Below are positions 2,673 through 64,000 of a stretch of DNA of 64,000 bases, piece by piece; positions within the stretch are counted from its first letter, which is position 1; each line of letters opens with the position of its first letter. A program made the position numbers and the translations under genes. The DNA lies in NCBI GenBank assembly GCA_964016885.1, contig OZ024750.1, positions 44,826,001 through 44,890,000 on the forward strand, read 5' to 3'. Under the pieces are notes generated by a model. The model saw only the letters and a list, made by a program, of their open reading frames with translations. It was not told where the DNA came from and made no database searches. Source of the stretch: Eledone cirrhosa. Taxonomy: Eukaryota.

Positions 2673-2868
2673 GGAATTTTACCCGCCCTATATATATATA
2701 TATATATATATTGGAATAAATGCTCTGAAATAGCGATATATATGTGAATATAGACATAGAATATTCGAAAATATTCTGTATGTTTATAATAAACATTTTG
2801 AAGACCCAATCGCTATAGAATAGAATACGTCACGTATTACAATTAGATTCTCGACAAAAGCAAGGGAA

Positions 2869-2911
2869 GTAATCTACGCGTTTCATTCTTGTTAGAAATC
2901 ATCAGGACTAC
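2869..2911 (-). ncRNA. Minimal type I hammerhead ribozyme (first of 12 minus-strand copies, period 310, last at 6279-6321)
   Basis: Minus strand reads GUAGUC-CUGAUGA-UUUCU AACA AGAAU-GAAA-CGCG-UA|GAUUAC. Stem I is GUAGUC/GAUUAC, stem II is UUCU/AGAA, stem III is the palindrome ACGCGU, and the cleavage triplet is GUA. Confidence 0.88.
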
Positions 2912-5900
2912 ATATCCAGTGCTTTTATCGAGAATGACACAGCTAGAGACTTATAGAATACTTAGCTGTGTACAGGAACTGGTTTGAAAGAGCGGTTGCC
3001 GGTCCGGCAGAAATTAGAAATTGGAATAAATGCTCTGAAATAGCGATATATATGTGAATATAGACATAGAATATTCGAAAATATTCTGTATGTTTATAAT
3101 AAACATTTTGAAGACCCAATCGCTATAGAATAGAATACGTCACGTATTACAATTAGATTCTCGACAAAAGCAAGGGAAGTAATCTACGCGTTTCATTCTT
3201 GTTAGAAATCATCAGGACTACATATCCAGTGCTTTTATCGAGAATGACACAGCTAGAGACTTATAGAATACTTAGCTGTGTACAGGAACTGGTTTGAAAG
3301 AGCGGTTGCCGGTCCGGCAGAAATTAGAAATTGGAATAAATGCTCTGAAATAGCGATATATATGTGAATATAGACATAGAATATTCGAAAATATTCTGTA
3401 TGTTTATAATAAACATTTTGAAGACCCAATCGCTATAGAATAGAATACGTCACGTATTACAATTAGATTCTCGACAAAAGCAAGGGAAGTAATCTACGCG
3501 TTTCATTCTTGTTAGAAATCATCAGGACTACATATCCAGTGCTTTTATCGAGAATGACACAGCTAGAGACTTATAGAATACTTAGCTGTGTACAGGAACT
3601 GGTTTGAAAGAGCGGTTGCCGGTCCGGCAGAAATTAGAAATTGGAATAAATGCTCTGAAATAGCGATATATATGTGAATATAGACATAGAATATTCGAAA
3701 ATATTCTGTATGTTTATAATAAACATTTTGAAGACCCAATCGCTATAGAATAGAATACGTCACGTATTACAATTAGATTCTCGGCAAAAGCAAGGGAAGT
3801 AATCTACGCGTTTCATTCTTGTTAGAAATCATCAGGACTACATATCCAGTGCTTTTATCGAGAATGACACAGCTAGAGACTTATAGAATACTTAGCTGTG
3901 TACAGGAACTGGTTTGAAAGAGCGGTTGCCGGTCCGGCAGAAATTAGAAATTGGAATAAATGCTCTGAAATAGCGATATATATGTGAATATAGACATAGA
4001 ATATTCGAAAATATTCTGTATGTTTATAATAAACATTTTGAAGACCCAATCGCTATAGAATAGAATACGTCACGTATTACAATTAGATTCTCGACAAAAG
4101 CAAGGGAAGTAATCTACGCGTTTCATTCTTGTTAGAAATCATCAGGACTACATATCCAGTGCTTTTATCGAGAATGACACAGCTAGAGACTTATAGAATA
4201 CTTAGCTGTGTACAGGAACTGGTTTGAAAGAGCGGTTGCCGGTCCGGCAGAAATTAGAAATTGGAATAAATGCTCTGAAATAGCGATATATATGTGAATA
4301 TAGACATAGAATATTCGAAAATATTCTGTATGTTTATAATAAACATTTTGAAGACCCAATCGCTATAGAATAGAATACGTCACGTATTACAATTAGATTC
4401 TCGACAAAAGCAAGGGAAGTAATCTACGCGTTTCATTCTTGTTAGAAATCATCAGGACTACATATCCAGTGCTTTTATCGAGAATGACACAGCTAGAGAC
4501 TTATAGAATACTTAGCTGTGTACAGGAACTGGTTTGAAAGAGCGGTTGCCGGTCCGGCAGAAATTAGAAATTGGAATAAATGCTCTGAAATAGCGATATA
4601 TATGTGAATATAGACATAGAATATTCGAAAATATTCTGTATGTTTATAATAAACATTTTGAAGACCCAATCGCTATAGAATAGAATACGTCACGTATTAC
4701 AATTAGATTCTCGACAAAAGCAAGGGAAGTAATCTACGCGTTTCATTCTTGTTAGAAATCATCAGGACTACATATCCAGTGCTTTTATCGAGAATGACAC
4801 AGCTAGAGACTTATAGAATACTTAGCTGTGTACAGGAACTGGTTTGAAAGAGCGGTTGCCGGTCCGGCAGAAATTAGAAATTGGAATAAATGCTCTGAAA
4901 TAGCGATATATATGTGAATATAGACATAGAATATTCGAAAATATTCTGTATGTTTATAATAAACATTTTGAAGACCCAATCGCTATAGAATAGAATACGT
5001 CACGTATTACAATTAGATTCTCGACAAAAGCAAGGGAAGTAATCTACGCGTTTCATTCTTGTTAGAAATCATCAGGACTACATATCCAGTGCTTTTATCG
5101 AGAATGACACAGCTAGAGACTTATAGAATACTTAGCTGTGTACAGGAACTGGTTTGAAAGAGCGGTTGCCGGTCCGGCAGAAATTAGAAATTGGAATAAA
5201 TGCTCTGAAATAGCGATATATATGTGAATATAGACATAGAATATTCGAAAATATTCTGTATGTTTATAATAAACATTTTGAAGACCCAATCGCTATAGAA
5301 TAGAATACGTCACGTATTACAATTAGATTCTCGACAAAAGCAAGGGAAGTAATCTACGCGTTTCATTATTGTTAGAAATCATCAGGACTACATATCCAGT
5401 GCTTTTATCGAGAATGACACAGCTAGAGACTTATAGAATACTTAGCTGTGTACAGGAACTGGTTTGAAAGAGCGGTTGCCGGTCCGGCAGAAATTAGAAA
5501 TTGGAATAAATGCTCTGAAATAGCGATATATATGTGAATATAGACATAGAATATTCGAAAATATTCTGTATGTTTATAATAAACATTTTGAAGACCCAAT
5601 CGCTATAGAATAGAATACGTCACGTATTACAATTAGATTCTCGACAAAAGCAAGGGAAGTAATCTACGCGTTTCATTCTTGTTAGAAATCATCAGGACTA
5701 CATATCCAGTGCTTTTATCGAGAATGACACAGCTAGAGACTTATAGAATACTTAGCTGTGTACAGGAACTGGTTTGAAAGAGCGGTTGCCGGTCCGGCAG
5801 AAATTAGAAATTGGAATAAATGCTCTGAAATAGCGATATATATGTGAATATAGACATAGAATATTCGAAAATATTCTGTATGTTTATAATAAACATTTTG

Positions 5901-6617
5901 AAGACCCAATCGCTATAGAATAGAATACGTCACGTATTACAATTAGATTCTCGACAAAAGCAAGGGAAGTAATCTACGCGTTTCATTCTTGTTAGAAATC
6001 ATCAGGACTACATATCCAGTGCTTTTATCGAGAATGACACAGCTAGAGACTTATAGAATACTTAGCTGTGTACAGGAACTGGTTTGAAAGAGCGGTTGCC
6101 GGTCCGGCAGAAATTAGAAATTGGAATAAATGCTCTGAAATAGCGATATATATGTGAATATAGACATAGAATATTCGAAAATATTCTGTATGTTTATAAT
6201 AAACATTTTGAAGACCCAATCGCTATAGAATAGAATACGTCACGTATTACAATTAGATTCTCGACAAAAGCAAGGGAAGTAATCTACGCGTTTCATTCTT
6301 GTTAGAAATCATCAGGACTACATATCCAGTGCTTTTATCGAGAATGACACAGCTAGAGACTTATAGAATACTTAGCTGTGTACAGGAACTGGTTTGAAAG
6401 AGCGGTTGCCGGTCCGGCAGAAATTAGAAATTGGAATAAATGCTCTGAAATAGCGATATATATGTGAATATAGACATAGAATATTCGAAAATATTCTGTA
6501 TGTTTATAATAAACATTTTGAAGACCCAATCGCTATAGAATAGAATACGTCACGTATTACAATTAGATTCTCGACAAAAGCAAGGGAAGTAATCTACGCG
6601 TTTCATTCACTGGATAT

Positions 6618-6660
6618 GTAGTCCTGATGATTTCTAACAAGAATGAAACGCGTAGATTAC
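6618..6660 (+). ncRNA. Minimal type I hammerhead ribozyme in the inverted arm (also 6928-6970 and 7238-7280)
   Basis: gtagtc CTGATGA tttctaacaagaat GAAA cgcg TA gattac, with predicted cleavage after 6654. In full units stem I extends by 16 bp (attctcgataaaagca / tgcttttgtcgagaat) beyond an internal loop. Confidence 0.88.
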
Positions 6661-7429
6661 TTCCCTTGCTTTTGTCGAGAATCTAATTGTAATACGTGAC
6701 GTATTCTATTCTATAGCGATTGGGTCTTCAAAATGTTTATTATAAACATACAGAATATTTTCGAATATTCTATGTCTATATTCACATATATATCGCTATT
6801 TCAGAGCATTTATTCCAATTTCTAATTTCTGCCGGACCGGCAACCGCTCTTTCAAACCAGTTCCTGTACACAGCTAAGTATTCTATAAGTCTCTAGCTGT
6901 GTCATTCTCGATAAAAGCACTGGATATGTAGTCCTGATGATTTCTAACAAGAATGAAACGCGTAGATTACTTCCCTTGCTTTTGTCGAGAATCTAATTGT
7001 AATACGTGACGTATTCTATTCTATAGCGATTGGGTCTTCAAAATGTTTATTATAAACATACAGAATATTTTCGAATATTCTATGTCTATATTCACATATA
7101 TATCGCTATTTCAGAGCATTTATTCCAATTTCTAATTTCTGCCGGACCGGCAACCGCTCTTTCAAACCAGTTCCTGTACACAGCTAAGTATTCTATAAGT
7201 CTCTAGCTGTGTCATTCTCGATAAAAGCACTGGATATGTAGTCCTGATGATTTCTAACAAGAATGAAACGCGTAGATTACTTCCCTTGCTTTTGTCGAGA
7301 ATCTAATTGTAATACGTGACGTATTCTATTCTATAGCGATTGGGTCTTCAAAATGTTTATTATAAACATACAGAATATTTTCGAATATTCTATGTCTATA
7401 TTCATATATATATATATATATATATATAT

Positions 7430-7818
<389 letters not shown>

Positions 7819-10760: not shown

Positions 10761-11153
10761 AAGAAAAAGAGATGAAATCGAAAATGCAACTGAAATCTTA
10801 TTTTAAAAAAAAATATATATATTTATTTGGTTCCTTTACCGGTTTCGCAGTTCTTCTGCTTTTCAAAAGGTGAGTTGAGATGGAGGGTCTGTGGTTTTTC
10901 TCATAGATGTGAGTTGAGATGGAGGGTCTGTGGTTTTTCTCACCGATGTGAGAAAAACCACAGATCCTCCATCTCAACTCACCTTTTGAAAAGCAGAAGA
11001 ACTGCGAAACCGGTAAAGGAACCAAATAAATATATATATTTTAAAAATAAGACTTCAGTTGCATTTTCGATTTCATCTCTTTTTCTTTATACTTTCACTC
11101 GTGTAGGACACCTCGGTTATTTTTCATTTTGTAAAAAAAACCTCACTTTCTAA
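10761..11153. mobile_element. Head-to-head foldback hammerhead element in (TA)n (U3-A8 family 1)
   Basis: Inverted arms meet near 10945. The left arm has an internal ~38-bp tandem duplication. Ribozymes at 10833-10870 (-) and 10982-11019 (+). (TA)n on both sides. Confidence 0.85.
10982..11019 (+). ncRNA. Minimal hammerhead ribozyme with variant core UUGAAAA
   Basis: cctt TTGAAAA gcag aagaa ctgc GAAA ccgg TA aagg. Stem I is cctt/aagg, stem II is gcag/ctgc, stem III is the palindrome ACCGGU. The C3-G8 pair is replaced by U3-A8. Confidence 0.8.
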
Positions 11154-11171
11154 TATATATATATATATATA

Positions 11172-11366
11172 TAATATAGATGAGATTCTATAGGACTAGA
11201 ACTGTTTCATTCTTTAGAAATCATCAGGAATCCCTGATGATTTCTAAAGAATGAAACAGTTCTAGTCCTGTAGAATCTCATCTATATTAAACATTTTATA
11301 CTCTGCAATGTATTGAGTACCTTACTTACTGTGGTTACCTCCGATTCAACCCGGAATAACGTACCT
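11172..11366. mobile_element. Short head-to-head foldback element with hammerheads at 11182-11234 (-) and 11233-11277 (+)
   Basis: Minus strand reads gggattc CTGATGA tttctaaagaat GAAA cag ttctagtc cta TA gaatctc. The plus copy has an intact stem III (cag/ctg), but its 5' stem I is cut by the inversion junction. (TA)n flanks. Confidence 0.82.
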
Positions 11367-11387
11367 ATATATATATATATATATATA

Positions 11388-17835: not shown

Positions 17836-17887
<52 letters not shown>

Positions 17888-18760: not shown

Positions 18761-18894
18761 CAGTTAAACAAAATTCAATGAGTATATCAAAGAATGAGTT
18801 TTACAGCAGATTGGAAGCACTCTACAGCAACGAATTTTCCAGAGTTTTAATATTAGAATATAAATATTAATAAAATAGATGTTCTTTTGATCAT

Positions 18895-18955
18895 TTACAT
18901 TTTATTATACATATTTCGGATGTACAACAGTACGTCCTCATCAGACAAAATATAA
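18895..18955 (-). ncRNA. Type I hammerhead ribozyme
   Basis: uuauauuuugu CUGAUGA ggacguac uguu guacaucc GAAA uaugua UA|auaaaauguaa. Stem I has 11 bp, stem II has one mismatch, stem III is short and quasi-palindromic. Confidence 0.85.
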
Positions 18956-19074
18956 TGATACATGAGATGTTAAATGGTTAAGATTTAAGCGAACTTAATT
19001 AAATCTTGTCTACCTTGATTAAATCTTAACCATTTAACATCTCAGGGTATGTCATGTATCATTATATATTGTCT

Positions 19075-19240
19075 CGGTAGAGGGTCGAACGCCATGCTTT
19101 CCAGCATAGTTACATCCCTTTACGATCTGAGTTCAAATCCCGCCGAGGTTGACTTTGCCTTTCATCCTTACGGGGTCGATAAAATAAAGTACCAGTAATG
19201 CACTGGTTAATTGCTGGCCTTGTGCCTAAAGTAGAAACAA
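19075..19240 (+). mobile_element. SINE inserted in the hammerhead element, with a 14-bp target-site duplication
   Basis: TSD attatatattgtct (19061-19074) / attatagtttgtct (19240-19253). B-box GTTCAAATCC. Confidence 0.9.
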
Positions 19241-19337
19241 TTATAGTTTGTCTGATGAAGACGTACTGTCGTACATCCGAAATATGTATAATAAAATGTA
19301 ATTGATCAAAAGAACATCTATTTTATTAATATTTATA

Positions 19338-21056: not shown

Positions 21057-21610
<554 letters not shown>

Positions 21611-33395: not shown

Positions 33396-33859
33396 ATTAA
33401 TACAATAAATGCATTATTGAAAGTTCAGTAAAGTGTGTATGTATACTTGTGTGTGTATGTGTGTTCGTGTGTGTTTATTTGTTTATGTTTGTGCTTGTGT
33501 GTGTATAAATGTGTGCGTGTATGTATGCCTATGCATTTGAGCCTGTGTGTTTGTATGTATGTGTGTAAGTGTGAGTATATTCCTCTATTATTCACATATA
33601 CACTTCACTATAATGAAATTAAACAAATATAATATCATAAGCACATACATGTACAGAGCGTATACACAGAGTATACAGCGCGTATACACAGCGTATACAC
33701 AATATATATACATCATTGTTTACATATATGTATTGTAGATATATTCTTTAAATGCTTTATTTGAATTTAAATTAAAGAAATTAGGACAGACCTTTACCTA
33801 TTGAATTCTTCTTATGTCAAACATTGCTATTTAAATTGATATAAATACTTAATTCTAAA

Positions 33860-35690
33860 ATATATATAACATATATGATAATATATATAACATATATGAT
33901 AATATATATAACATATATGATAATATATATAACATATATGATAATATATATAACATATATGATAATATATATAACATATATGATAATATATATAACATAT
34001 ATGATAATATATATAACATATATGATAATATATATAACATATATGATAATATATGTAACATATATGATAATATATATAACATATATGATAATATATATAA
34101 CATATATGATAATATATATAACATATATGATAATATATATAACATATATGATAATATATATAACATATATGATAATATATATAACATATATGATAATATA
34201 TATAACATATATGATAATATATAAATGACATATATGATAATATATATATAACATATATAATAATACATATGAAATATATAATAATATATATGACATATAT
34301 GATAATATATATAACATATAATGATATATATAACATATATGATAATATATATAACATATATGATAATATATATAACATATATGATAATATATATAACATA
34401 TATAATAATATATATAACATATATAATAATATATATAACATATATAATAATATATATAATAATATATATAACATATATAATAATATATATATAACTGTAC
34501 CTACTTTAGGCACAAGGCTAGCAATTAAACAGTACATTACTGGTACTTTATTTTATCGACCCCGTAAGGATGAAAGGCAAAGTCAACCTCGGCGGGATTT
34601 GAACTCAGATCGTAAAGGGACGTGACTATGCTGGAAAGCATGGCATCCGACCCTCTACCGATACTGCCAATATGACATATATAATAATATATATATAACA
34701 TATAATAATATATATAACATATAATAATATATATAACATATATAATATATATAACATATATAATAATATATATAACACATATGATAATATATATAACATA
34801 TATAATAATATATATAACATAATAATAATATATATAACATATATAATAATATATATAAGATATATGATAATATATATAAGATATATGATAATATATATCA
34901 CATATATGATAATATATATAACATATATGATAATATATATAACATATATAATAATATATATAAGATATATGATAATATATATCACATATATGATAATATA
35001 TATAACATATATGATAATATATATAACATATATGATAATATATATAACATATATAATAATATATATAACATATATGATAATATATATAACATATATAATA
35101 ATATATATAACATATAAAATATATATAACATATATAATATATATAACATATATAATAATATATATATAACATAAAATATATATAACATATATAATATATA
35201 TAACATATATAATAATATATATAACATATAAAATATATATAACATATATAATATATATAACATATATAATATATATAACATATATAATATATATAACATA
35301 TATAATATATATAACATATATAATAATATATATAACATATACAATATATATAACATATATAATATATATAACATATATAATATATATAACATATATAATA
35401 TATATAACATATATAATAATATATATATATAACATAAAATATATATAACATATATAATATATATAACATATATAATAATATATATAACATATAAAATATA
35501 TATAACATATATAATATATATAACATATATAATATATATAACATATATAATAATATATATAACATAAAATATATATAACATATATAATATATATAACATA
35601 TATAATATATATAACATATATGATAATATATATAACACATATAATAATATATACAACATATAATAATATATAAAACATATATAATAATAT
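33860..35690. repeat. AT-rich 18-21-bp minisatellite (ATATATAACATATATGATAAT)
   Basis: Direct periodicity, interrupted by a SINE at 34497-34669. Confidence 0.93.
34497..34669 (-). mobile_element. tRNA-derived SINE
   Basis: Reverse complement of the SINE, from A-box to 3' end. Confidence 0.88.
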
Positions 35691-35705
35691 AGAGTAATTA
35701 ATAAA

Positions 35706-36016: not shown

Positions 36017-36920
36017 GCGATGACAATGACAAGGAGAACAACAGCAGCACTAGCGAGGAATACAATAACAGCAGCACTAGTGATGACAATCACAAGGAGA
36101 ACAACAGCAGCACTAGCGAGGAATACGACAACAGCAGCACTAGTGATGACAATAACGACAACAGCAGCACTAGTGAGGAATACAGCAACAACAGCACTAG
36201 TGAGGAATACTACAACAGCAGCACTAGTGAGGAATACAGCAACAGCAGCACTAGTGAGGAATACAACAACAGCAACACTAGTGAGGAATATAACAACAGC
36301 AGCACTAGAGAGGAATACAACAACAGCAACACTAGTGAGGAATATAACAACAGCAGCACTAGTGAGGAATACAACAACAGCAGCACTAGTGAGGAATACA
36401 ACAACAGCAGCACTAGTGAGGAATATAACAACAGCAGCACTAGTGAGGAATACAGCAACAACAGCACTAGTGAGGAATACAACAACAGCAACACTAGTGA
36501 GGAATACAGCACAACAGCACTACTGAGGAATACAGCAACAACAGCACTACTGAGGAATATAACAACAGCAGCACTAGTGAAGACAATGACAAGGAGAACA
36601 ACAGCAGATGCGAGGGATACGACAACAGCAGCAGTAGCGAGGAATACAGCAACAACAGCACTAGTGAGGAACACAGCAACAACAGCTCTAGTCATGAAAA
36701 TGACAAGGAGAACAACAGCAGATGCGAGGGATACGACAACGGCAGCACATGCGAGGAATACAGCAACATCAGCACTAGTGATGACAATAACGACACAGCA
36801 GCACTAGTGAGGAATACAGCAACAACAGCACTAGTGATGACAACGATAGAAACAAGTGTCAGTGATGACAACAACAAAACAGCATCATTGAGGACAAGAC
36901 AACAACAACAACAGCAACAA
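36017..36920. repeat. 27-bp AAC/AGC-based minisatellite (AACAACAGCAGCACTAGTGAGGAATAC)
   Basis: Direct periodicity, with a frameshift near 36510. Confidence 0.9.
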
Positions 36921-38639: not shown

Positions 38640-41600
38640 TAGGTGGTGTTAGTGTCAGTGGGGGTGGTGGTGTTAGTGTCAGTGGTAGTGGTGGTGTTAG
38701 TGTCAGTGGTAGTGGTGGTGTTAGTGTCAGTGGGGTGGTGGTGTTAGTGTCAGTGGGGGTGGTGGTGTTAGTGTCAGTGGGGGTGGTGGTGTTAGTGTCA
38801 GTGGTAGTGGTGGTGTTAGTGTCAATGGTAGTGGTGGTGTTAGTGTCAGTGGGGGTGGTGGTGTTAGTGTCAGTGGTAGTGGTGGTGTTAGTGTCAGTGG
38901 TAGTGGTGGTGTTAGTGTCCGTGGTAGTGGTGGTGTTAGTGTCAGTGGTAGTGGTGGTGTTAGTGTCAGTGGGGGGGGGTGTTAGTGTCAGTGGCGGTGG
39001 TGGTGTTAGTGTCAGTGGGGGTGGTGGTGTTAGTGTCAGTGGCGGTGGTGGTGTTAGTGTCAGTGGTAGTGGTGGTGTTAGTGTCAGTGGTGGTGGTGGT
39101 GTTAGTGTCAGTGGTAGTGGTGGTGTTAGTGTCAGTGGGGGGGGGGTGTTAGTGTCAGTGGTAGTGGTGGTGTTAGTGTCAGTGGGGGTGGTGGTGTTAG
39201 TGTCAGTGGGGGTGGTGGTGTTAGTGTCAGTGGTAGTGGTGGTGTTAGTGTCAGTGGTAGTGGTGGTGTTAGTGTCAGTGGGGGTGGTGGTGTTAGTGTC
39301 AGTGGGGGTGGTGGTGTTAGTGTCAGTGTGGGGGGGGGGTGTTAGTGTCAGTGGTAGTGGTGGTGTTAGTGTCAGTGGTAGTGGTGGTGATAGTGTCAGT
39401 GGTAGTGGTGGTGTTAGTGTCAGTGGTAGTGGTGGTGATAGTGTCAGTGGTAGTGGTGGTGTTAGTGTCAGTGGTAGTAGTGGTGTTAGTGTCAGTTGTA
39501 GTGGTGGTGTTAGTGTCAGTGGTAGTGGTGGTGTTAGTGTCAGTGGTAGTGGTGGTGTTAGTGTCAGTGGTAGTGGTGGTGTTAGTGTCAGTGGTAGTGG
39601 TGGTGATAATGTCAGTGGTAGTGGTGGTGTTAGTGTCAGTGGGGGTGGTGGTGTTAGTGTCAGTGGTAGTGGTGGTGTTAGTGTCAGTGGTAGTGGTGGT
39701 GTTAGTGTCAGGGGTAGTGGTGGTGGTGTTATTGGTAGTGGTGGTGTTAGTGTCAGTGGTAGTGATGGTGTTAGTGTCAGTGGTAGTGGTGGTGTTAGTG
39801 TCAGTGGTAGTGGTGGTGTTAGTGTCAGTGGTAGTGGTGGTGATAGTGTCAGTGGTAGTGGTGGTGTTAGTGTCAGTGGTAGTGGTGGTGTTAGTGTCAG
39901 TGGTAGTGGTGGTGATAGTGTCAGTGGTAGTAGTGGTGTTAGTGTCAGTGGTAGTAGTGGTGTTAGTGTCAGTGGTAGTGGTGGTGATAGTGTCAGTGGT
40001 AGTGGTGGTGTTAGTGTCAGTGGTAGTGGTGGTGTTAGTGTCAGTGGTAGTGGTGGTGTTAGTGTCATGGTAGTGATGGTGTTAGTATCAATGGTAGTGG
40101 TGGTGTTAGTGTCAGTGGTAGTGGTGGTGATAGTGTCAGTGGTAGTGGTGCTGATAGTGTCAGTGGTAGTGGTGGTGTTAGTGTCAGAGGTAGTGGTGGT
40201 GTTAGTGTCAGTGGTAGTGGTGGTGTTCGTGTCAGTGGTAGTGGTGGTGTTAGTGTCAGTGGTAGTGGTGGTGTTAGTGTCAGTGGTGGTGGTGGTGTTA
40301 GTGTTATTGGTAGTGGTGGTGTTAGTGTCAGTGGGGGTGGTGGTGTTAGTGTTATTGGTAGTGGTGGTGTTAGTGTCAGTGGTAGTGGTGGTGTTAGTGT
40401 CAGTGGTGGTGGTGGTGTTAGTGTTATTGGTAGTGGTGGTGTTAGTGTCAGTGGTAGTGGTGGTGGTGTTATTGGTAGTGGTGGTGTTAGTGTTATTGGT
40501 AGTGGTGGTGTTAGTGTCAGTGGTAGTGGTGGTGTTAGTGTCAGTGGTAGTGGTGGTGGTGTTAGTGTCAGTGGTGGTGTTAGTGTCAGTGGTGGTGGTG
40601 GTGTTAGTGTCAGAGGTAGTGGTGGTGTTAGTGTCAGTGGTAGTGGTGGTGTTAGTGTCAGTGGTAGTGGTGGTGTTAGTGTCAGTGGTAGTGGTGGTGT
40701 TAGTGTCAGTGGTGGTGGTGGTGTTAGTGTCAGTGGTGGTGGTGGTGTTAGTGTCAGTGGTAGTGGTGGTGTTAGTGTCAGTGGGGGGGGGGGTGTTAGT
40801 GTCAGTGGTAGTGGTGGTGTTAGTGTCAGTGGGGGTGGTGGTGTTAGTGTCAGTGGGGGTGGTGGTGTTAGTGTCAGTGGTAGTGGTGGTGTTAGTGTCA
40901 GTGGTAGTGGTGGTGTTAGTGTCAGTGGGGGTGGTGGTGTTAGTGTCAGTGGGGGTGGTGGTGTTAGTGTCAGTGTGGGGGGGGGGGGGGGGGTGTTAGT
41001 GTCAGTGGTAGTGGTGGTGTTAGTGTCAGTGGTAGTGGTGGTGATAGTGTCAGTGGTAGTGGTGGTGTTAGTGTCAGTGGTAGTGGTGGTGATAGTGTCA
41101 GTGGTAGTGGTGGTGTTAGTGTCAGTGGTAGTAGTGGTGTTAGTGTCAGTTGTAGTGGTGGTGTTAGTGTCAGTGGTAGTGGTGGTGTTAGTGTCAGTGG
41201 TAGTGGTGGTGTTAGTGTCAGTGGTAGTGGTGGTGTTAGTGTCAGTGGTAGTGGTGGTGATAATGTCAGTGGTAGTGGTGGTGTTAGTGTCAGTGGGGGT
41301 GGTGGTGTTAGTGTCAGTGGTAGTGGTGGTGTTAGTGTCAGTGGTAGTGGTGGTGTTAGTGTCAGGGGTAGTGGTGGTGGTGTTATTGGTAGTGGTGGTG
41401 TTAGTGTCAGTGGTAGTGATGGTGTTAGTGTCAGTGGTAGTGGTGGTGTTAGTGTCAGTGGTAGTGGTGGTGTTAGTGTCAGTGGTAGTGGTGGTGATAG
41501 TGTCAGTGGTAGTGGTGGTGTTAGTGTCAGTGGTAGTGGTTGTGTTAGTGTCAGTGGTAGTGGTGGTGATAGTGTCAGTGGTAGTAGTGGTGTTAGTGTC

Positions 41601-44600
41601 AGTGGTAGTAGTGGTGTTAGTGTCAGTGGTAGTGGTGGTGATAGTGTCAGTGGTAGTGGTGGTGTTAGTGTCAGTGGTAGTGGTGGTGTTAGTGTCAGTG
41701 GTAGTGGTGGTGTTAGTGTCATGGTAGTGATGGTGTTAGTATCAATGGTAGTGGTGGTGTTAGTGTCAGTGGTAGTGGTGGTGATAGTGTCAGTGGTAGT
41801 GGTGCTGATAGTGTCAGTGGTAGTGGTGGTGTTAGTGTCAGAGGTAGTGGTGGTGTTAGTGTCAGTGGTAGTGGTGGTGTTCGTGTCAGTGGTAGTGGTG
41901 GTGTTAGTGTCAGTGGTAGTGGTGGTGTTAGTGTCAGTGGTGGTGGTGGTGTTAGTGTTATTGGTAGTGGTGGTGTTAGTGTCAGTGGGGGTGGTGGTGT
42001 TAGTGTTATTGGTAGTGGTGGTGTTAGTGTCAGTGGTAGTGGTGGTGTTAGTGTCAGTGGTGGTGGTGGTGTTAGTGTTATTGGTAGTGGTGGTGTTAGT
42101 GTCAGTGGTAGTGGTGGTGGTGTTATTGGTAGTGGTGGTGTTAGTGTTATTGGTAGTGGTGGTGTTAGTGTCAGTGGTAGTGGTGGTGTTAGTGTCAGTG
42201 GTAGTGGTGGTGGTGTTAGTGTCAGTGGTGGTGTTAGTGTCAGTGGTGGTGGTGGTGTTAGTGTCAGAGGTAGTGGTGGTGTTAGTGTCAGTGGTAGTGG
42301 TGGTGTTAGTGTCAGTGGTAGTGGTGGTGTTAGTGTCAGTGGTAGTGGTGGTGTTAGTGTCAGTGGTGGTGGTGGTGTTAGTGTCAGTGGTGGTGGTGGT
42401 GTTAGTGTCAGTGGTAGTGGTGGTGTTAGTGTCAGTGGTAGTGGTGGTGTTAGTGTCAGTGGTGGTGGTGGTGTTAGTGTCAGTGGTAGTGGTGGTGTTA
42501 GTGTCAGTGGTGGTGGTGGTGTTAGTGTCAGTGGTAGTGGTGGTGGTGTTAGTGTCAGTGGTGGTGTTAGTGTCAGTGGTAGTGGTGGTGTTAGTGTCAG
42601 TGGTAGTGGTGGTGGTGTTAGTGTCAGTGGTGGTGTTAGTGTCAGTGGTAGTGGTGGTGTTAGTGTCAGTGGTAGTGGTGGTGTTAGTGTCAGTGGTGGT
42701 GGTGGTGTTAGTGTCAGTGGTAGTGGTGGTGTTAGTGTCAGTGGTAGTGGTGGTGTTAGTGTCAGTGGTAGTGGTGGTGTTAGTGTCAGTGGTAGTGGTG
42801 GTGTTAGTGTCAGTGGTGGTGGTGGTGTTAGTGTCAGTGGTAGTGGTGGTGTTAGTGTCAGTGGTAGTGGTGGTGGTGTTAGTGTCAGTGGTGGTGTTAG
42901 TGTCAGAGGTGGTGGTGGTGTTAGTGTCAGTGGTGGTGGTGGTGTTAGTGTCAGCGGTAGTGGTGGTGTTAGTGTCAGTGGTAGTGGTGGTGTTAGTGTC
43001 AGTGGTGGTGGTGGTGTTAGTGTTATTGGTAGTGGTGGTGTTAGTGTCAGTGGTAGTGTTGGTGTTAGTGTCAGTGGTAGTGGTGGTGGTGTTATTGGTA
43101 GTGGTGGTGTTAGTGTTATTGGTAGTGGTGGTGTTAGTGTCAGAGGTAGTGGTGGTGGTGTTATTGGTAGTGGTGGTGTTAGTGTTTTTGGTGGTGGTGG
43201 TGTTAGTGTCAGTGGTAGTGGTGGTGTTAGTGTCAGTGGTAGTGGTGGTGTTAGTGTCAGTGGTGGTGTTAGTGTCAGAGGTAGTGGTGGTGTTAGTGTC
43301 AGTGGTGGTGGTGGTGTTAGTGTCAGTGGTAGTGGTGGTGTTAGTGTCAGTGATAGTGGTGGTGTTTGTGTCAGTGGTGGTGGTGGTGTTAGTGTCAGCG
43401 GTAGTGGTGGTGTTAGTGTCAGCGGTAGTGGTGGTGTTAGTGTCAGTGGTGGTGGTGGTGTTAGTGTCAGCGGTAGTGGTGGTGTTAGTGTCAGTGGTAG
43501 TGGTGGTGTTAGTGTCAGTGGTAGTGGTGGTGTTAGTGTCAGCGGTAGTGGTGGTGTTAGTGTCAGTGGTAGTGGTGGTGTTAGTATCAGTGGTGGTGGT
43601 GGTGTTAGTGTCAGTGGTAGTGGTGGTGTTAGTGTCAGTGGTAGTGGTGGTGTTAGTGTCAGTGGTAGTGGTGGTGTTAGTATCAGTGGTGGTGGTGGTG
43701 TTAGTGTCAGTGGTAGTGGTGGTGTTAGTGTCAGTGGTAGTGGTGGTGTTAGTATCAGTGGTGGTGGTGGTGTTAGTGTCAGAGGTGGTGGTGGTGGTGT
43801 TATTGGTAGTGGTGGTGTTAGTGTCAGTGGTAGTGGTGGTGTTAGTGTCAGTGGTGGTGGTGGTGTTAGTGTTATTGGTAGTGGTGGTGTTAGTGTCAGT
43901 GGTAGTGGTGGTGGTGTTATTGGTAGTGGTGGTGTTAGTGTTATTGGTAGTGGTGGTGTTAGTGTCAGTGGTAGTGGTGGTGTTAGTGTCAGTGGTAGTG
44001 GTGGTGTTAGTGTCAGTGGTAGTGGTGGTGTTAGTGTCAATGGTAGTGGTGGTGTTAGTGTCAGTGGTAGTGGTGGTGTTAGTGTCAGTGGTAGTGGTGG
44101 TGTTAGTGTCAGTGGTAGTGGTGGTGGTGTTATTGGTAGTGGTGGTGTTAGTGTCAGTGGTAGTGGTGGTGGTGTTATTGGTAGTGGTGGTGTTAGTGTC
44201 AGTGGTAGTGGTGGTGTTAGTGTCAGTGGTAGTGGTGGTGTTAGTGTCAGCGGTAGTGGTGGTGATAGTGTCAGTGGTAGTGGTGGTGTTAGTGTCAGTG
44301 GTAGTGGTGGTGTTAGTGTCAGTGGTAGTGATGGTGTTAGTGTCAGTGGTAGTGGTGGTGTTAGTGTCAGTGGTAGTGGTGGTGTTAGTGACAGTGGTGG
44401 TGTTAGTGTCAGAGGTAGTGGTGGTGTTAGTGTCAGTGGTAGTGGTGGTGTTAGTGTCAGTGGTAGTGGTGGTGTTAGTGTCAGTGGTAGTGGTGGTGTT
44501 AGTGTCAGTGGTGGTGTTAGTGTCAGAGGTAGTGGTGGTGTTAGTGTCAGTGGTGGTGGTGGTGTTAGTGTCAGCGGTAGTGGTGGTGTTAGTGTCAGTG

Positions 44601-47600
44601 GTAGTGGTGGTGTTAGTGTCAGTGGTGGTGGTGGTGTTAGTGTTATTGGTAGTGGTGGTGTTAGTGTTATTGGTAGTGGTGGTGTTAGTGTCAGTGGTAG
44701 TGGTGGTGTTAGTGTCAGTGGTAGTGGTGGTGTTAGTGTCAGTGGTAGTGATGGTGTTAGTGTCAGTGGTAGTGGTGGTGTTAGTGTCAGTGGTAGTGGT
44801 GGTGTTAGTGTCAGTGGTAGTGGTGGTGTTAGTGTCAGTGGTAGTGGTGGTGTTAGTGTCAGTGGTAGTGGCGGTGTTAGTGTCAGTGGTAGTGATGGTG
44901 TTAGTATCAGTGGTGGTGGTGGTGTTAGTGTCAGAGGTAGTGGTGGTGTTAGTGTCAGCGGTAGTGGTGGTGTCAGTGGTAGTGGTGGTGTTAGTGTCAG
45001 TGGAGGTGGTGGTGTTAGTGTCAGCGGTAGTGGTGGTGTTAGTGTCAGTGGTAGTGGTGGTGTTAGTGTCAGTGGTGGTGGTGGTGTTAGTGTTATTGGT
45101 AGTGGTGGTGTTAGTGTCAGTTGTAGTGGTGGTGTTAGTGTCAGTGGTAGTGGTGGTGTTAGTGTTATTGGTAGTGGTGGTGTTAGTGTCAGCGGTAGTG
45201 GTGGTGTTAGTGTCAGTGGTGGTGGTGGTGTTAGTGTCAGTGGTAGTGGTGGTGTTAGTGTCAGTGGTAGTGATGGTGTTAGTGTCAGCGGTAGTGGTGG
45301 TGTTAGTGTCAGAGGTAGTGGTGGTGTTAGTGTCAGTGGTAGTGGTGGTGTTAGTGTCAGAGGTAATGGTGGTGTTAGTGTCAGTGGTAGTGATGGTGTT
45401 AGTGTCAGTGGAGGTGGTGGTGTTAGTGTCAGTGATAATGGTGGTGTTAGTGTCAGTGGTAGTGGTGGTGTTAGTGTCAGTGGTAGTGGTGGTGTTAGTG
45501 TCAGTGGTAGTGGTGGTGTTAGTGTCAGTGATAGTGGTGGTGTTAGTGACAGTGGTAGTGGTGGTGTTAGTGTCAGTGGTAGTGGTGGTGTTAGTGTCAG
45601 TGATAGTGGTGGTGTTAGTGTCAGTGGTAGTGGTGGTGTTAGTGTCAGTGGTTGTGGTGGTGTTAGTGTCAGTGGTAGTGGTAGTGGTGGTGTTAGAGTC
45701 AGAGGTAGTGGTGGTGTTAGTGTCAGTGGTGTTGGTGGTGTTAGTGTCAGTGGTAGTGGTGGTGTTAGTGTCAGTGGTAGTGGTGGTGTTAGTGTCAGTG
45801 GTAGTGGAGGTGGTGGTATTGGTAGTGGTGGTGTTAGTGTCAGTGGTAGTGGTGGTGTTAGTGTCAGTGGTAGTGGTGGTGTTAGTGTCAGTGGTAGTGG
45901 TGGTGTTAGTGTCAGTGGTGGTGGTGGTGTTAGTGTCAGAGGTAGTGGTGGTGTTAGTGTCAGTGGTAGTGGTGGTGTTAGTGTCAGTGGTAGTGGTGGT
46001 GTTAGTGTCAGTGGTGGTGGTGGTGTTAGTGTCAGAGGTAGTGGTGGTGTTAGTGTCAGTGGTAGTGGTGGTGTTAGTGTCAGTGGGGGTGGTGGTGTTA
46101 GTGTCAGTGGGGGTGGTGGTGTTAGTGTCAGTGGTAGTGGTGGTGTTAGTGTCAGTGATAGTGGTGGTGTTAGTGTCAGTGGTAGTGGTGGTGTTAGTGT
46201 CAGTGGTAGTGGTGGTGTTAGTGTCAGTGGTGGTGGTGGTGTTAGTGTCAGAGGTAGTGGTGGTGTTAGTGTCAGTGGTAGTGGTGGTGTTAGTGGTGGT
46301 GTTAGTGTCAGTGGTAGTGGGGGTGTTAGTGTCAGTGGTGGTGGTGGTGTTAGTGTCAGATGTAGTGGTGGTGTTAGTGTCAGTGGTAGTGGTGGTGTTA
46401 GTGTCAGTGGTAGTGGTGGTGTTAGTGTCAGTGGTAGTGGTGTTGTTAGTGTCAGTGGTAGTGGTGGTGTTCGTGTCAGTGGTGGTGGTGGTGTTAGTGT
46501 CAGAGGTAGTGGTGGTGTTAGTGTCAGAGGTAGTGGTGGTGTTAGTGTCAGAGGTAGTGTTGGTGTTAGTGTCAGTGGTAGTGGTGGTGTTAGTGTCAGT
46601 GGTGGTGGTTGTGTAAGTGTCAGAGGTAGTGGTGGTGTTAGTGTCAGTGGTAGTGGTGGTGTTAGTGTCAGTGGTAGTGGTGGTGTTAGTGTCAGTGGTA
46701 GTGGTGTTGTTAGTGTCAGTGGTAGTGGTGGTGTTCGTGTCAGTGGTGGTGGTGGTGTTAGTGTCAGAGGTAGTGGTGGTGTTAGTGTCAGTGGTAGTGG
46801 TGGTGTTAGTGTCAGTGGTAGTGGTGGTGTTAGTGTCAGTGGTAGTGGTGGTGTTAGTGTCAGTGGTAGTGGTGGTGTTAGTGTCAGTGGGGTGGTGGTG
46901 TTAGTGTCAGTGGTAGTGATGGTGTTAGTGTCAGTGGTAGTGATGGTGTTAGTGTCAGTGGTAGTGATGGTGTTAGTGTCAGTGATTGTGGTGGTGTTAG
47001 TGTCAGTGGTAGTGGTGGTGTTAGTGTCAGTGGTGGTGGTTGTGTAAGTGTCAGAGGTAGTGGTGGTGTTAGTGTCAGTGGTAGTGGTGGTGTTAGTGTC
47101 AGTGGTAGTGGTGGTGTTAGTGTCAGTGATAGTGGTGGTGTTAGTGTCAGTGGTAGTGGTGGTGTTAGTGTCAGTGGTAGTGGTGGTGTTAGTGTCAGTG
47201 GTAGTGGTGGTGTTAGTGTCAGTGGTAGTGGTGGTGTTAGTGCCAGTGGTAGTGGTGGTGTTAGTGTCAGTGATTGTGGTGGTGTTAGTGTCAGTGGTAG
47301 TGGTGGTGTTAGTGTCAGTGGTGGTGGTGGTGTTAGTGTCAGTGGTAGTGATGGTGTTAGTGTCAGTGGTAGTGGTGGTGTTAGTGTCAGTGGTAGTGGT
47401 GGTGTTAGTGTCAGTGGTAGTGGTGGTGTTAGTGTCAGTGGTAGTGGTGGTGTTAGTGCCAGTGGTAGTGGTGGTGTTAGTGTCAGTGATTGTGGTGGTG
47501 TTAGTGTCAGTGGTAGTGGTGGTGTTAGTGTCAGTGGTGGTGGTGGTGTTAGTGTCAGTGGTAGTGATGGTGTTAGTGTCAGTGGTAGTGGTGGTGTTAG

Positions 47601-47878
47601 TGTCAGTGGTAGTGGTGGTGTTAGTGCCAGTGGTAGTGGTGGTGTTAGTGTCAGTGATAGTGGTGGTGTTAGTGTCAGTGGTAGTGGTGGTGTTAGTGTC
47701 AGTGGTAGTGGTGGTGTTAGTGTCAGTGTGGGTGGTGGTGTTAGTGTCAGTGGTAGTGGTGGTGTTAGTGTCAGTGGTAGTGGTGGTGTTAGTGTCAGTG
47801 GTGGTGGTGGTGTTAGTGTCAGTGGTAGTGTTGGTGTCAGTGTCAGTGGTAGTGGTGGTGTTAGTGTCAGTGGGGGTG
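38640..47878. repeat. ~9.2-kb 24-bp minisatellite (GTGGTGGTGTTAGTGTCAGTGGTA)
   Basis: Direct periodicity with variant units. A higher-order duplication has a period of 1654 bp. Confidence 0.97.
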
Positions 47879-48004
47879 GATTATCCATTTATTTTGAGGC
47901 ATGAAACCGTGCGGTAAGGGTAATTATAGTAATAGTAAGTACAGTAAACTTTTTAAAATTAATTTTAAAACACTTTCTCTATTTGCTAAACCTTTATTAT
48001 ATAA

Positions 48005-48714: not shown

Positions 48715-51700
48715 GTGATGGTATTGGTGTTGTTGTTGGTGATGGTATTGGTGTTGTTGTTGATGATGGTATTGGGGTTGTTTTTGGTGATGGTATTGGT
48801 GTTGTTGATGGTGATGGTATTGGTGTTGTTGATGTCGATGGCTTTTGCCGTTGTCATATTGGTGATGGTATTGGGGTTGTTATTGGTGATGGTATTGATG
48901 TTGTTGGTGATGGTATTGATGTTGTTGGTGATGGTATTGGGGTTGTTGTTGGTGATGGTATTGGGGTTGTTGTTGGTGATGGTATTGGTGTTGTTGTTGG
49001 TGATGGTATTGATGATGTTGTTGGTGATGGTATTGATGTTGTTGTTGGTGATGGTATTGGGATTGTTGTTGGTGATGGTATTGGGGTTGTTGGTGATGGT
49101 ATTGGGGTTGTTGTTGTTGATTGTTTTGGGGTTGTTGTTGGTGATGGTATTGATGTTGTTGTTGGTGATGGTATTGATGTTGTTGTTGGTGATGGTATTG
49201 GTGTTGTTGTTGGTGATGGTATTGGTGTTGTTGTTGGTGATGGTATTGATGATGTTGTTGGTGATGGTATTGATGTTGTTGTTGGTGATGGTATTGGGGT
49301 TGTTGTTGGTGATGGTATTGAGGTTGTTGTTGTTGATGGTATTGGTGTTGTTGTTGGTGATGGTATTGGTGTTGTTGTTGATGATGGTATTGGGGTTGTT
49401 GTTGGTGATGGTATTGGGGTTGTTGTTGGTGATGGTATTGGGGTTGTTGTTGGTGATGGTATTGGTGTTGTTGGTGATGGTATAGGGGTTGTTGTTGGTG
49501 ATGGTATTGGTGTTGTTGTTGGTGATGGTATTGAGGTTGTTGTTGGTGTTGGTATTGGGGTTGTTGTTGGTGATGGTATTGGGGTTGTTGTTCGTGGTGG
49601 TATTGGGGTTGGTGTTGGTGATGGTATAGGTGTTGTTGTTGGTGATGGTATTGGTGTTGTTGTTGGTGATGGTATTGATGTTGTTGTTGGTGATGGTATT
49701 GGTGTTGTTGTTGGTGATGGTATTGGTGTTGTTGTTGGTGATGGTATTGGTGTTGTTGTTGGTGATGGTATTGGTGTTGTTGTTGGTGATGGTATTGGGG
49801 TTGTTGTTGGTGATGGTATTGGTGTTGTTGTTGGTGATGGTATTGGGGTTGTTGTTGGTGATGGTATTGGGGTTGTTGTTGGTGATGGTATTGGTGTGGT
49901 TGTTGGTGATGGTATTGAGGTTGTTGTTGTTGATGGTATTGGTGTTGTTGTTGGTGATGGTATTGGTGTTGTTGTTGATGATGGTATTGGTGTTGTTGTT
50001 GGTGATGGTATTGGGGTTGTTGTTGGTGATGGTATTGGGGTTGTTGTTGGTGATGGTATTGATGTTGTTGGTGATGGTATTGATGTTGTTGGTGATGGTA
50101 TTGGGGTTGTTGTTGGTGATGGTATTGGGGTTGTTGTTGGTGATGGTATTGGTGTTGTTGTTGGTGATGGTATTGATGATGTTGTTGGTGATGGTATTGA
50201 TGTTGTTGTTGGTGATGGTATTGGGATTGTTGTTGGTGATGGTATTGGGGTTGTTGGTGATGGTATTGGGGTTGTTGTTGTTGATTGTTTTGGGGTTGTT
50301 GTTGGTGATGGTATTGGTGTTGTTGTTGGTGATGGTATTGATGTTGTTGTTGGTGATGGTATTGATGTTGTTGTTGGTGATGGTATTGGTGTTGTTGTTG
50401 GTGATGGTATTGGGGTTGTTGTTGGTGATGGTATTGATGATGTTGTTGGTGATGGTATTGATGTTGTTGTTGGTGATGGTATTGGGATTGTTGTTGGTGA
50501 TGGTATTGATGTTGTTGGTGATGGTATTGGTGTTGTTGTTGTTGATTGTTTTGGGGTTGTTGTTGGTGATGGTATTGGTGTTGTTGTTGGTGATGGTATT
50601 GATGATGTTGTTGGTGATGGTATTGATGTTGTTGTTGGTGATGGTATTGGGATTGTTGTTGGTGATGGTATTGATGTTGTTGGTGATGGTATTGGTGTTG
50701 TTGTTGTTGATTGTTTTGGGGTTGTTGTTGGTGATGGTATTGGTGTTGTTGTTGGTGATGGTATTGGTGTTGTTGTTGGTGATGGTATTGGTGTTGTTGT
50801 TGGTGATGGTATTGATGATGTTGTTGGTGATGGTATTGATGTTGTTGTTGGTGATGGTATTGGGATTGTTGTTGGTGATGGTATTGATGTTGTTGGTGAT
50901 GGTATTGGTGTTGTTGTTGTTGATTGTTTTGGGGTTGTTGTTGGTGATGGTATTGGTGTTGTTGTTGGTGATGGTATTGGTGTTGTTGTTGGTGATGGTA
51001 TTGGTGTTGTTGTTGGTGATGGTATTGGTGTTGTTGTTGGTGATGGTATTGATGATGTTGTTGGTGATGGTATTGGTGTTGTTGTTGTTGATTGTTTTGG
51101 GGTTGTTGTTGGTGATGGTATTGGTGTTGTTGTTGGTGATGGTATTGGTGTTGTTGTTGGTGATGGTATTGGTGTTGTTGTTGGTGATGGTATTGGTGTT
51201 GTTGTTGGTGATGGTATTGGTGTTGTTGTTGGTGATGGTATTGGGGTTGTTGTTGTTGATGGTATTGATGATGTTGTTGGTGATGGTATTGATGTTGTTG
51301 TTGGTGATGGTATTGGGATTGTTGTTGGTGATGGTATTGGGGTTGTTGTTGGTGATGGTATTGGTGTTGTTGTTGGTGATGGTATTGATGATGTTGTTGG
51401 TGATGGTATTGATGTTGTTGTTGGTGATGGTATTGGGATTGTTGTTGGTGATGGTATTGGGGTTGTTGTTGGTGATGGTATTGGTGTTGTTGTTGGTGAT
51501 GGTATTGATGTTGTTGTTGGTGATGGTATTGGGATTGTTGTTGGTGATGGTATTGGGGTTGTTGTTGGTGATGGTATTGGTGTTGTTGTTGGTGATGGTA
51601 TTGGTGTTGTTGGTGATGGTATGGGGGTTGTTGTTGGTGATGGTATTGGTGTTGTTGTTGGTGATGGTATTGGTGTTGTTGTTGGTGATGGTATTGAGGT

Positions 51701-63700: not shown

Positions 63701-64000
63701 TGTTGTTGGTGATGGTATTGGTGTTGTTGTTGGTGATGGTATTGGTGTTGTTGTTGGTGATGGTATTGGTGTTGTTGTTGGTGATGGTATTGGGGTTGTT
63801 GTTGGTGATGGTATTGGGGTTGTTGATGGTGATGGTATTGGTGTTGTTGTTGGTGATGGTATTGGGGTTGTTGTTGGTGATGGTATTGGGGTTGTTGTTG
63901 GTGATGGTATTGATGTTGTTGTTGGTGATGGTATTGATGTTGTTGTTGGTGATGGTATTGGTGTTGTTGTTGGTGATGGTATTGGTGTTGTTGTTGGTGA
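48715..64000. repeat. >15-kb 24-bp minisatellite (GGTGATGGTATTGGTGTTGTTGTT), running off the window end
   Basis: Direct periodicity with variant units in regional blocks. Confidence 0.97.

Follow-up and report, generated by a model that had tools for sequence, protein, structure and literature searches.

How does a tandem array of ribozyme-bearing units come to lie, as two opposed arms, inside a simple repeat? The question is raised by an array of 310-bp units in a (TA)n microsatellite of Eledone cirrhosa, located in a 64,000-nucleotide stretch of contig OZ024750.1 (positions 44,826,001 to 44,890,000; hereafter the window). With a probability of about 0.65, we read this array as one insertion of a young non-coding hammerhead retrozyme, for which a borrowed Penelope-type enzyme would have cut the (TA)n and copied one 310-nt circular RNA repeatedly from both DNA ends. 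The first-pass annotation had proposed a single rolling-circle reverse-transcription event. The rolling-circle part, like the retrozyme identity itself, is supported by the dispersal of the family, by the one haplotype present in both arms of an insertion, by unscarred ligation junctions and by fixed variants that spare the ribozyme core. The idea of one single product did not hold, however: the inversion is the normal build of the family, with two fixed outer ends about 35 nt apart in the unit (sites A and B), which points to two priming events.

Two arms and two fixed ends in a dispersed family

The array covers about 4,700 bp (Table 1), and the roughly 15 near-identical, hammerhead-bearing units first noted there are indeed present. 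There are 15 hammerhead cores in 15 full passes, 12 on the minus strand and 3 on the plus strand (at 6624, 6934 and 7244). Mismatches to the unit occur only at 5368 and 3784; in the core at 5385, one change disrupts a stem II pair. The longest stop-to-stop frame of the unit has 59 codons, so the unit is non-coding, and without a frame for reverse transcriptase plus GIY-YIG it is not itself an autonomous Penelope-like element (PLE). Its size and GC content (35%, 108 of 310 bases) fit the range of retrozymes without long terminal repeats (non-LTR retrozymes; tandem units of 150-450 bp, GC below 50%).

The array is one ordinary member of a dispersed young family and not a local satellite. An exact-pattern search of the whole genome found intact hammerhead cores of the family at 17,859 places (reversed-pattern control, 0), and the unit matches many chromosomes at 99-100% identity. 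On the forward strand, the junction patterns gave 634 matches for site B and 1,018 for site A, the latter pattern also matching an internal variant; reverse-strand counts were inflated by overlapping matches. Roughly 1,300-2,000 insertions are thus present in the genome. The two-armed insertions that were read have a median of 8.4 units and a maximum of 42.6, with arms of up to 30 units and insertions reaching 13 kb.

The outer ends of the arms lie at unit position 174-186 (site A) or 210-219 (site B), and are followed by (TA)n. A sample taken by coordinates only (C1, 1-118 Mb) contained 69 A and 49 B sites. Of its 40 pairs of divergent neighbours, 38 consisted of one A and one B; the two A/A exceptions (L108 and L306) turned out to be B+A once their sequence was read, and 38 sites had no partner match. 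In 69 stretches that were read, arms stood back to back in 61, and 58 of 65 arm pairs were A+B, none being A+A or B+B. The remaining seven pairs are affected by a rearrangement or mapping overshoot, by a gap or an edge, or by an end of the older subfamily. Paired junctions were the reason for choosing about 32 of the 69 stretches, so that 58/65 is biased and the C1 sample provides the unbiased count; moreover, L290 consists of two near-identical copies, probably a duplication, and is counted twice among these 65 pairs and among the 62 insertions considered below. The inner ends are spread evenly round the unit (P = 0.51), with 3 of 118 near the cut site against 3.4 expected.

That the array or its inversion is an assembly artefact has, in our view, a practically negligible probability. 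The number of units and the junction at 6608 are those of the assembly, but the same build recurs with different junctions at the 58 A+B arm pairs, two single-unit variants lie inside the left arm, and contigs of run X1, which may be the assembly's own source, pass from the unit into TA-rich sequence at sites A and B. The unit was also present in 20 runs under 17 organism labels. Horizontal transfer, or a free circle in other organisms, was considered and rejected, because trace carry-over of host DNA explains the signal in the three runs checked (X4, X6 and X7, with X1 for comparison): each of these, under another organism label, has one 340-nt contig (310+30) and also carries an abundant dispersed repeat of the host, whose depth there is about 1e-4 to 4e-6 of that in X1.

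Each insertion appears to derive from one template. Of 47 insertions whose arms both contain at least one unit, 46 have the same haplotype in the two arms. Across 62 insertions (a set that omits one L277 pair as well as L105 and L113, which belong to an older 312-nt subfamily) we counted 28 haplotype labels, many of them seen once and some owed to partial cover, while common haplotypes recur in 8-11 insertions. In the window array, all copies (16/16) have G at unit position 115; the remaining young insertions that were read have A there. In L043+44, a new allele is fixed in all 43 units. Single-unit substitutions amount to 0.05% per base, and 78 of 91 such variants occur once (L285 and L310 are omitted from this count owing to end-extension artefacts). 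No single-unit variant at all was found in 21 two-armed insertions of up to 14.2 units, and no single-unit indel at positions 45-50, the ligation junction, in 681 passes. One haplotype in both arms, together with evenly spread inner ends, fits a single covalent RNA circle and two primers. In L277, L279, L299 and L303, we also observed 311-nt variants whose extra base, 2-3 positions past the predicted cut, is fixed in every unit.

Table 1. Coordinates of the array, its ends and its predicted RNA features in the window.
Feature	Position	Strand	Basis or remark
(TA)n target microsatellite, left flank	2689..2709	.	sequence
Left arm: 12 hammerhead cores in 12.58 head-to-tail units; its outer (3') end is site B (unit position 212), and the inner end falls at position 34	2710..6608	-	repeat period, unit mapping
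Inversion junction; the 5' ends of the arms share one base (C)	6608..6608	.	
Right arm: 3 hammerhead cores in 2.57 units; its outer (3') end is site A (unit position 177, or 186 with TA microhomology)	6608..7404	+	
(TA)n target microsatellite, right flank	7405..7429	.	
Type I hammerhead of one unit: stem I 6618-6623/6655-6660; CUGAUGA 6624-6630; GAAA 6645-6648; U.U, then 4-bp stem II; stem III is the palindromic ACGCGU; predicted cut after 6654	6618..6660	+	motif and helix anatomy; activity predicted
Stem I extension, 3' strand; pairs with unit 297-310 (6904-6917) and closes the structure of the circle	6669..6682	+	circular fold
Module that older sister circles also carry (unit 106-260), with sites A and B, two covarying hairpins, a downstream hairpin and the helix 106-113/185-192	6713..6867	+	probable enzyme-recognition region
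Interval of about 35 nt from site A to site B (unit 177-214), corresponding to the Penelope 'tail'	6784..6821	+	

The predicted ribozyme and the module around the ends

The hammerhead is predicted from its motif and helix anatomy, and scores below the Rfam cut-off: none of the Rfam hammerhead families (clan CL00010) matched at gathering score, Hammerhead_HH9 reaching 18-20 bits against a cut-off of 52. The placement of the motif agrees with the cut between GUA and GAUUAC announced by the first-pass annotation, which had also described the ribozyme as minimal and acting in adjacent pairs through its palindromic stem III. The pairing fits the predicted folds. In the circular fold of the monomer, stem I is nearly certain, stem II is weak (pair probability 0.13-0.16) and stem III has a probability of 0; a co-fold of two copies gives a double hammerhead whose stem III is intermolecular, at -22.3 kcal/mol, versus -13.2 kcal/mol for two separate folds. 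The label 'minimal', in contrast, had to be dropped: the 6-bp stem I continues beyond an internal loop with 16 more pairs, so the motif is not of the minimal (PLE) type. This 16-bp extension, already seen at first pass, forms in the circular fold at a pair probability of 0.64-1.0.

Folded as a circle, as had been suggested, the monomer reaches -67.8 kcal/mol with 60% of its bases paired; shuffled sequences give -49.5 +/- 4.4 kcal/mol (z = -4.1), none of 100 being as low. The linear fold of the unit has a z of -2.35, with 4 of 100 shuffles as low. The antisense circle folds better still (-73.6 kcal/mol), and folding energy therefore cannot tell which strand exists as RNA. Five inverted-repeat pairs that had been listed in the unit are all there and exactly complementary, but one of them (atgtttat/ataaacat) would leave a 1-nt loop and cannot pair over all 8 bases; six of its pairs are backed by the family alignment. 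A small hairpin between sites A and B was rejected (probability 0.07, no covariation). A promoter pattern scan of the unit detected no Pol III A or B box, and the TATA-like run at site A may be due to chance in AT-rich DNA.

The variants fixed within insertions may bear on how the predicted RNA evolves. Ten of 23 lie in the 43-nt hammerhead and none in its 14 core positions (P = 0.02); those substitutions in the hammerhead fall in loops or keep or improve pairs, and two of the variants are one-base insertions in stem I. A>G changes make up 8 of 20 fixed substitutions but 4 of 91 single-unit substitutions (P = 9e-5), or 6 of 20 when two majority-polarised sites are removed (P = 0.002). Such an excess is explained by A-to-I editing of the template as well as by stems that tolerate G.U pairs.

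Older sister circles, about 320 nt long, match the unit at 77-82% over positions 106-282 and have the same two ends. Their hammerheads are clearly different and include a U3-A8 core variant (L188, L197-L226, L247-L276); a further pattern was found at 3,057 places. Two hairpins of the common module stay paired through three two-sided changes (22 copies of three subfamilies, 97% of cells paired), which are three inherited events and not 16. The end of the module lies about 45 nt beyond site B, comparable to the 55-60 nt or so that an anole PLE needs past its start sites (PMC11167929). By analogy, the module may be what binds the enzyme.

Proposed copying of a circle and the competing accounts

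PLE insertions go into (TA)n targets and comprise an inverted truncated copy and, at one of their ends, a tail of 30-40 nt (Craig 2021, PMC8557442). The tail lies between two start sites of reverse transcription, and the protein, a predicted dimer, cuts and extends both strands (Frangieh 2024, PMC11167929). The end offset of about 35 nt, the inversion and the (TA)n target of the present family match this anatomy and point to an enzyme of the same type. Indeed, what was found in the family is shared with endonuclease-bearing (EN+) PLEs point by point: an inverted 5'-truncated copy, a 30-40-nt tail at one end, a (TA)n or AT-rich target and two adjacent putative start sites of reverse transcription (PMC11167929, PMC8557442, PMC3846280). 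Unlike in EN+ PLEs, no frame exceeds 59 codons, the arms are chains of up to 30 short units, and a strict use of one site per arm could be counted.

We therefore propose four steps. First, paired hammerheads would cut a multimeric transcript to monomers, which would then be ligated into a circle, by analogy to known retrozymes (PMC7229834). A dimeric PLE protein would next bind the structured module, cut both strands of the (TA)n and prime at the two sites; the sites and their one-each use are observed, and the enzyme is suggested by the anole work (PMC11167929). Each end would then be extended round the circle for an independent number of turns, a rolling motion that would produce the observed homogeneity. 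Last, the two cDNAs would be joined at their far ends by short microhomology, which is seen at the junctions, along a repair route that we infer.

Several findings weigh against this mechanism, the first of which concerns the enzyme. An autonomous PLE sharing the module was found neither beside 100 PLE-protein loci (80, plus 20 from a wider search; best candidates scored) nor among 90 sister-family loci, and two follow-ups likewise yielded no autonomous element. The same 100 loci, again with the best candidates scored, showed no similarity of the unit to the pseudo-long terminal repeat (pLTR) of an autonomous PLE of this genome. Moreover, 8 of the 69 stretches have one arm only. The sparing of the core is not significant when fixed variants are compared with single-unit variants (0/10 vs 4/13, P = 0.10), nor is the excess of A>G over T>C among fixed substitutions (8 vs 4, P = 0.11). 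In one study, 1 of 9 predicted dimers was cleaved in vitro (bioRxiv 2026.07.22.740005). Finally, the read-through transcript of a homogeneous parent array would give homogeneous arms equally well, and single-unit variants are sometimes repeated or shared between arms, as detailed with the alternatives that they favour.

Counting for a borrowed Penelope-type enzyme, the genome does hold young intact PLEs, for instance a family with a 717-aa frame in 3,531-bp tandems, of which 73 copies were scored at 97-100%. One copy (L126:1177-3330, at C1:437.20 Mb) encodes a 717-aa PLE with a CxCx5C motif before the endonuclease part; no hammerhead pattern was detected in the L126 flanks, and a 635-aa copy was scanned without a Pfam match. 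Another PLE family, 46% to the 717-aa protein, has an inverted hammerhead-bearing end and is inserted beside a sister circle (L348:3320-6270).

An unlikely alternative keeps the Penelope-type double priming but replaces the circle by a long linear read-through of a homogeneous parent array, the hammerhead being perhaps idle at insertion. Homogeneous parents would yield homogeneous daughters, which suits the recurrence of common haplotypes. Cleavage is not needed by an anole PLE, which used uncleaved, unprocessed RNA in vitro (PMC11167929), and the monomer fold, with its weak stem II and absent stem III, goes in the same direction. However, the allele fixed in all 43 units of L043+44 would require a bottleneck of one unit, many haplotypes were seen once, and the linear template would have to cover insertions that reach 13 kb. 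In addition, recurrence in two different loci was limited to 5 single-unit variants, and no ordered set of such variants reappeared.

It is also rather improbable that the insertions were short at first, with one or two units in two PLE-type arms, and were later amplified at the DNA level, either through unequal crossover or through a rolling DNA circle, as favoured in bioRxiv 2026.07.22.740005. In support of such growth, 13 of the 91 single-unit variants are repeated in the longest arrays (L043+44, L280, L283 and L284), including two in L283 that recur 7 units apart, and five single-unit substitutions are common to both arms. The longest arrays were indeed remodelled a little at the DNA level later, for example by duplication. 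Growth of this kind sits poorly, however, with the 21 insertions without single-unit variant and with the large majority of variants that occur once; arms below one unit exist next to long partners, and both arms would need to lengthen at hundreds of loci within 0.05% divergence.

Two further routes start from other templates. A primed cDNA could fold back and be copied into the second arm, a self-priming discussed for the inverted junctions of PLEs (PMC3846280); we regard this as very improbable here. Two of the five shared substitutions are at mirror positions (L114+38+115 and L296), and the inner ends are slightly nearer in phase than expected by chance (P = 0.036, a test that left out L105, L113, L277 and L290, and to which we give little weight). 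A stronger phase link (P = 5e-5) was discarded, having been inflated by extension through the stem I palindrome; the lower significance is that of the redone test. Under fold-back, nothing would explain why the second arm ends at the other fixed site. Of the single-unit variants that the other arm could reach, most have no mirror counterpart, and the A arm is the longer one in 24 of 56 insertions, so that neither arm is regularly longer or always first.

We give hardly any credence to template jumping between linear, hammerhead-cut monomers. It would account for L310, where one allele is present in 2/6 and 7/7 units of the two arms, a further point against a single circle; one arm switches there after four units to the allele of the other, by a template switch or later conversion. 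Against jumping, neither scars nor a pile-up of ends were found at the cut site, and haplotypes remain unmixed within arms in the 46 of 47 insertions although many coexist in the genome. All together, the uniform arms are better matched by a covalent circle that was copied many times over from two primers than by linear-monomer jumping or fold-back.

On every feature testable in sequence, the element is a non-LTR retrozyme, whose cleavage and circles are predicted. Tandem cDNA copies made from a circle by a PLE enzyme were proposed for metazoan non-LTR retrozymes (Cervera and de la Pena 2020, PMC7229834). As in those elements, there is one type I hammerhead per tandem unit of 150-450 bp, GC is low, the unit is non-coding and the predicted circle is self-paired; stem III resembles that of axolotl HHR_Amex1 (one pair and a palindromic tetraloop), and the U.U at the base of stem II that of HHR_Amex2. 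RNA, cleavage and circles were demonstrated for the retrozymes of PMC7229834, whereas those of the present family are predicted from genome sequence. Conversely, the two-armed build, the paired end sites and the single haplotype per insertion are not seen in the covered part of PMC7229834, whose main text lacks the word 'inverted'. The link between retrozymes and PLEs is also made in bioRxiv 2026.07.22.740005, by co-occurrence and pLTR similarity and not, as here, by insertion marks; the tandems are explained there as local amplification, and the words 'tail' and 'head-to-head' are missing from its text. In the open-access full text searched, we found no description of two-armed, tail-bearing retrozyme insertions.

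Hammerhead satellites offer another comparison. Tandem units of about 300 bp that are cleaved as dimers are reportedly found in schistosome SM-alpha. The tandem hammerhead units of newt satellite 2 are of similar size and are cleaved as dimers too, like the units here would be (PMC7229834). In contrast to the satellite blocks of newt satellite 2 or SM-alpha, the present insertions are dispersed, very young and two-armed. The class of the element is already known, and its mechanism of spreading would be one that was proposed for such elements.

Two questions meet in this family: which enzyme moves animal retrozymes, and how PLEs make inverted, tailed insertions. Published models of retrozyme tandems are split between the copying of a circle (PMC7229834) and later local amplification (bioRxiv 2026.07.22.740005). 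The family, with over a thousand insertions that are nearly identical, share two fixed priming sites and have one haplotype each, forms a natural data set that favours the copying of a circle. For a direct test in vitro, it also offers two start sites, a structured module and a defined substrate of 310 nt. If the proposal is true, it would describe a two-ended, rolling-circle reverse transcription with integration in a eukaryote, and possibly a route from RNA editing to germ-line DNA.

A bolder version, which we advance tentatively and hold to be doubtful, would make each insertion the fossil of one RNA molecule. A PLE dimer would hold one 310-nt circle at two sites that are 35 nt apart, with each of its active sites rolling for up to 30 turns. 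Changes in the RNA, A-to-I edits among them, would enter every unit and become heritable, which would explain both the A>G excess and the G at position 115. The family would then evolve as a selected RNA circle, its hammerhead free to change and its priming module kept.

Neighbouring elements and satellites in the window

The (TA)n that holds the array lies at the edge of one of several short elements with minimal hammerhead-like cores (7430-7700, 18880-19320, 21200-21500, 23980 and 1014). Some of these are inverted pairs, one of which is interrupted by a dispersed repeat. At 11175-11370, a (TA)n-flanked two-armed element has a hammerhead-like core and ends about 80 nt apart. It shares with the array only stem II and GAAA (28 nt); a first look gave 1,317 candidates, whose longer copies share about 500 bp, and no reading frame was linked to it in four loci. 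Next to it lies an inverted pair (10761-11160) whose tail measures about 64 nt; inspection by eye matched its sequence to the 3' end of a PLE family that has an open frame of 938 codons (L227).

The remaining features are repeats of other kinds. Very abundant dispersed repeats, with SINE-like (short interspersed element) tandem copies, lie at 1178-1917 and 2300-2690, with a summed depth of up to 14 million in run X1. A 21-bp AT-rich minisatellite (33859-35691, 90 copies) and a 27-bp minisatellite (36037-36837, 29 copies) are followed by two long 24-bp satellites at 38642-47879 and 48715-64000, of about 387 and at least 639 copies, respectively, both with an extreme strand skew (GC skew up to 1.0).

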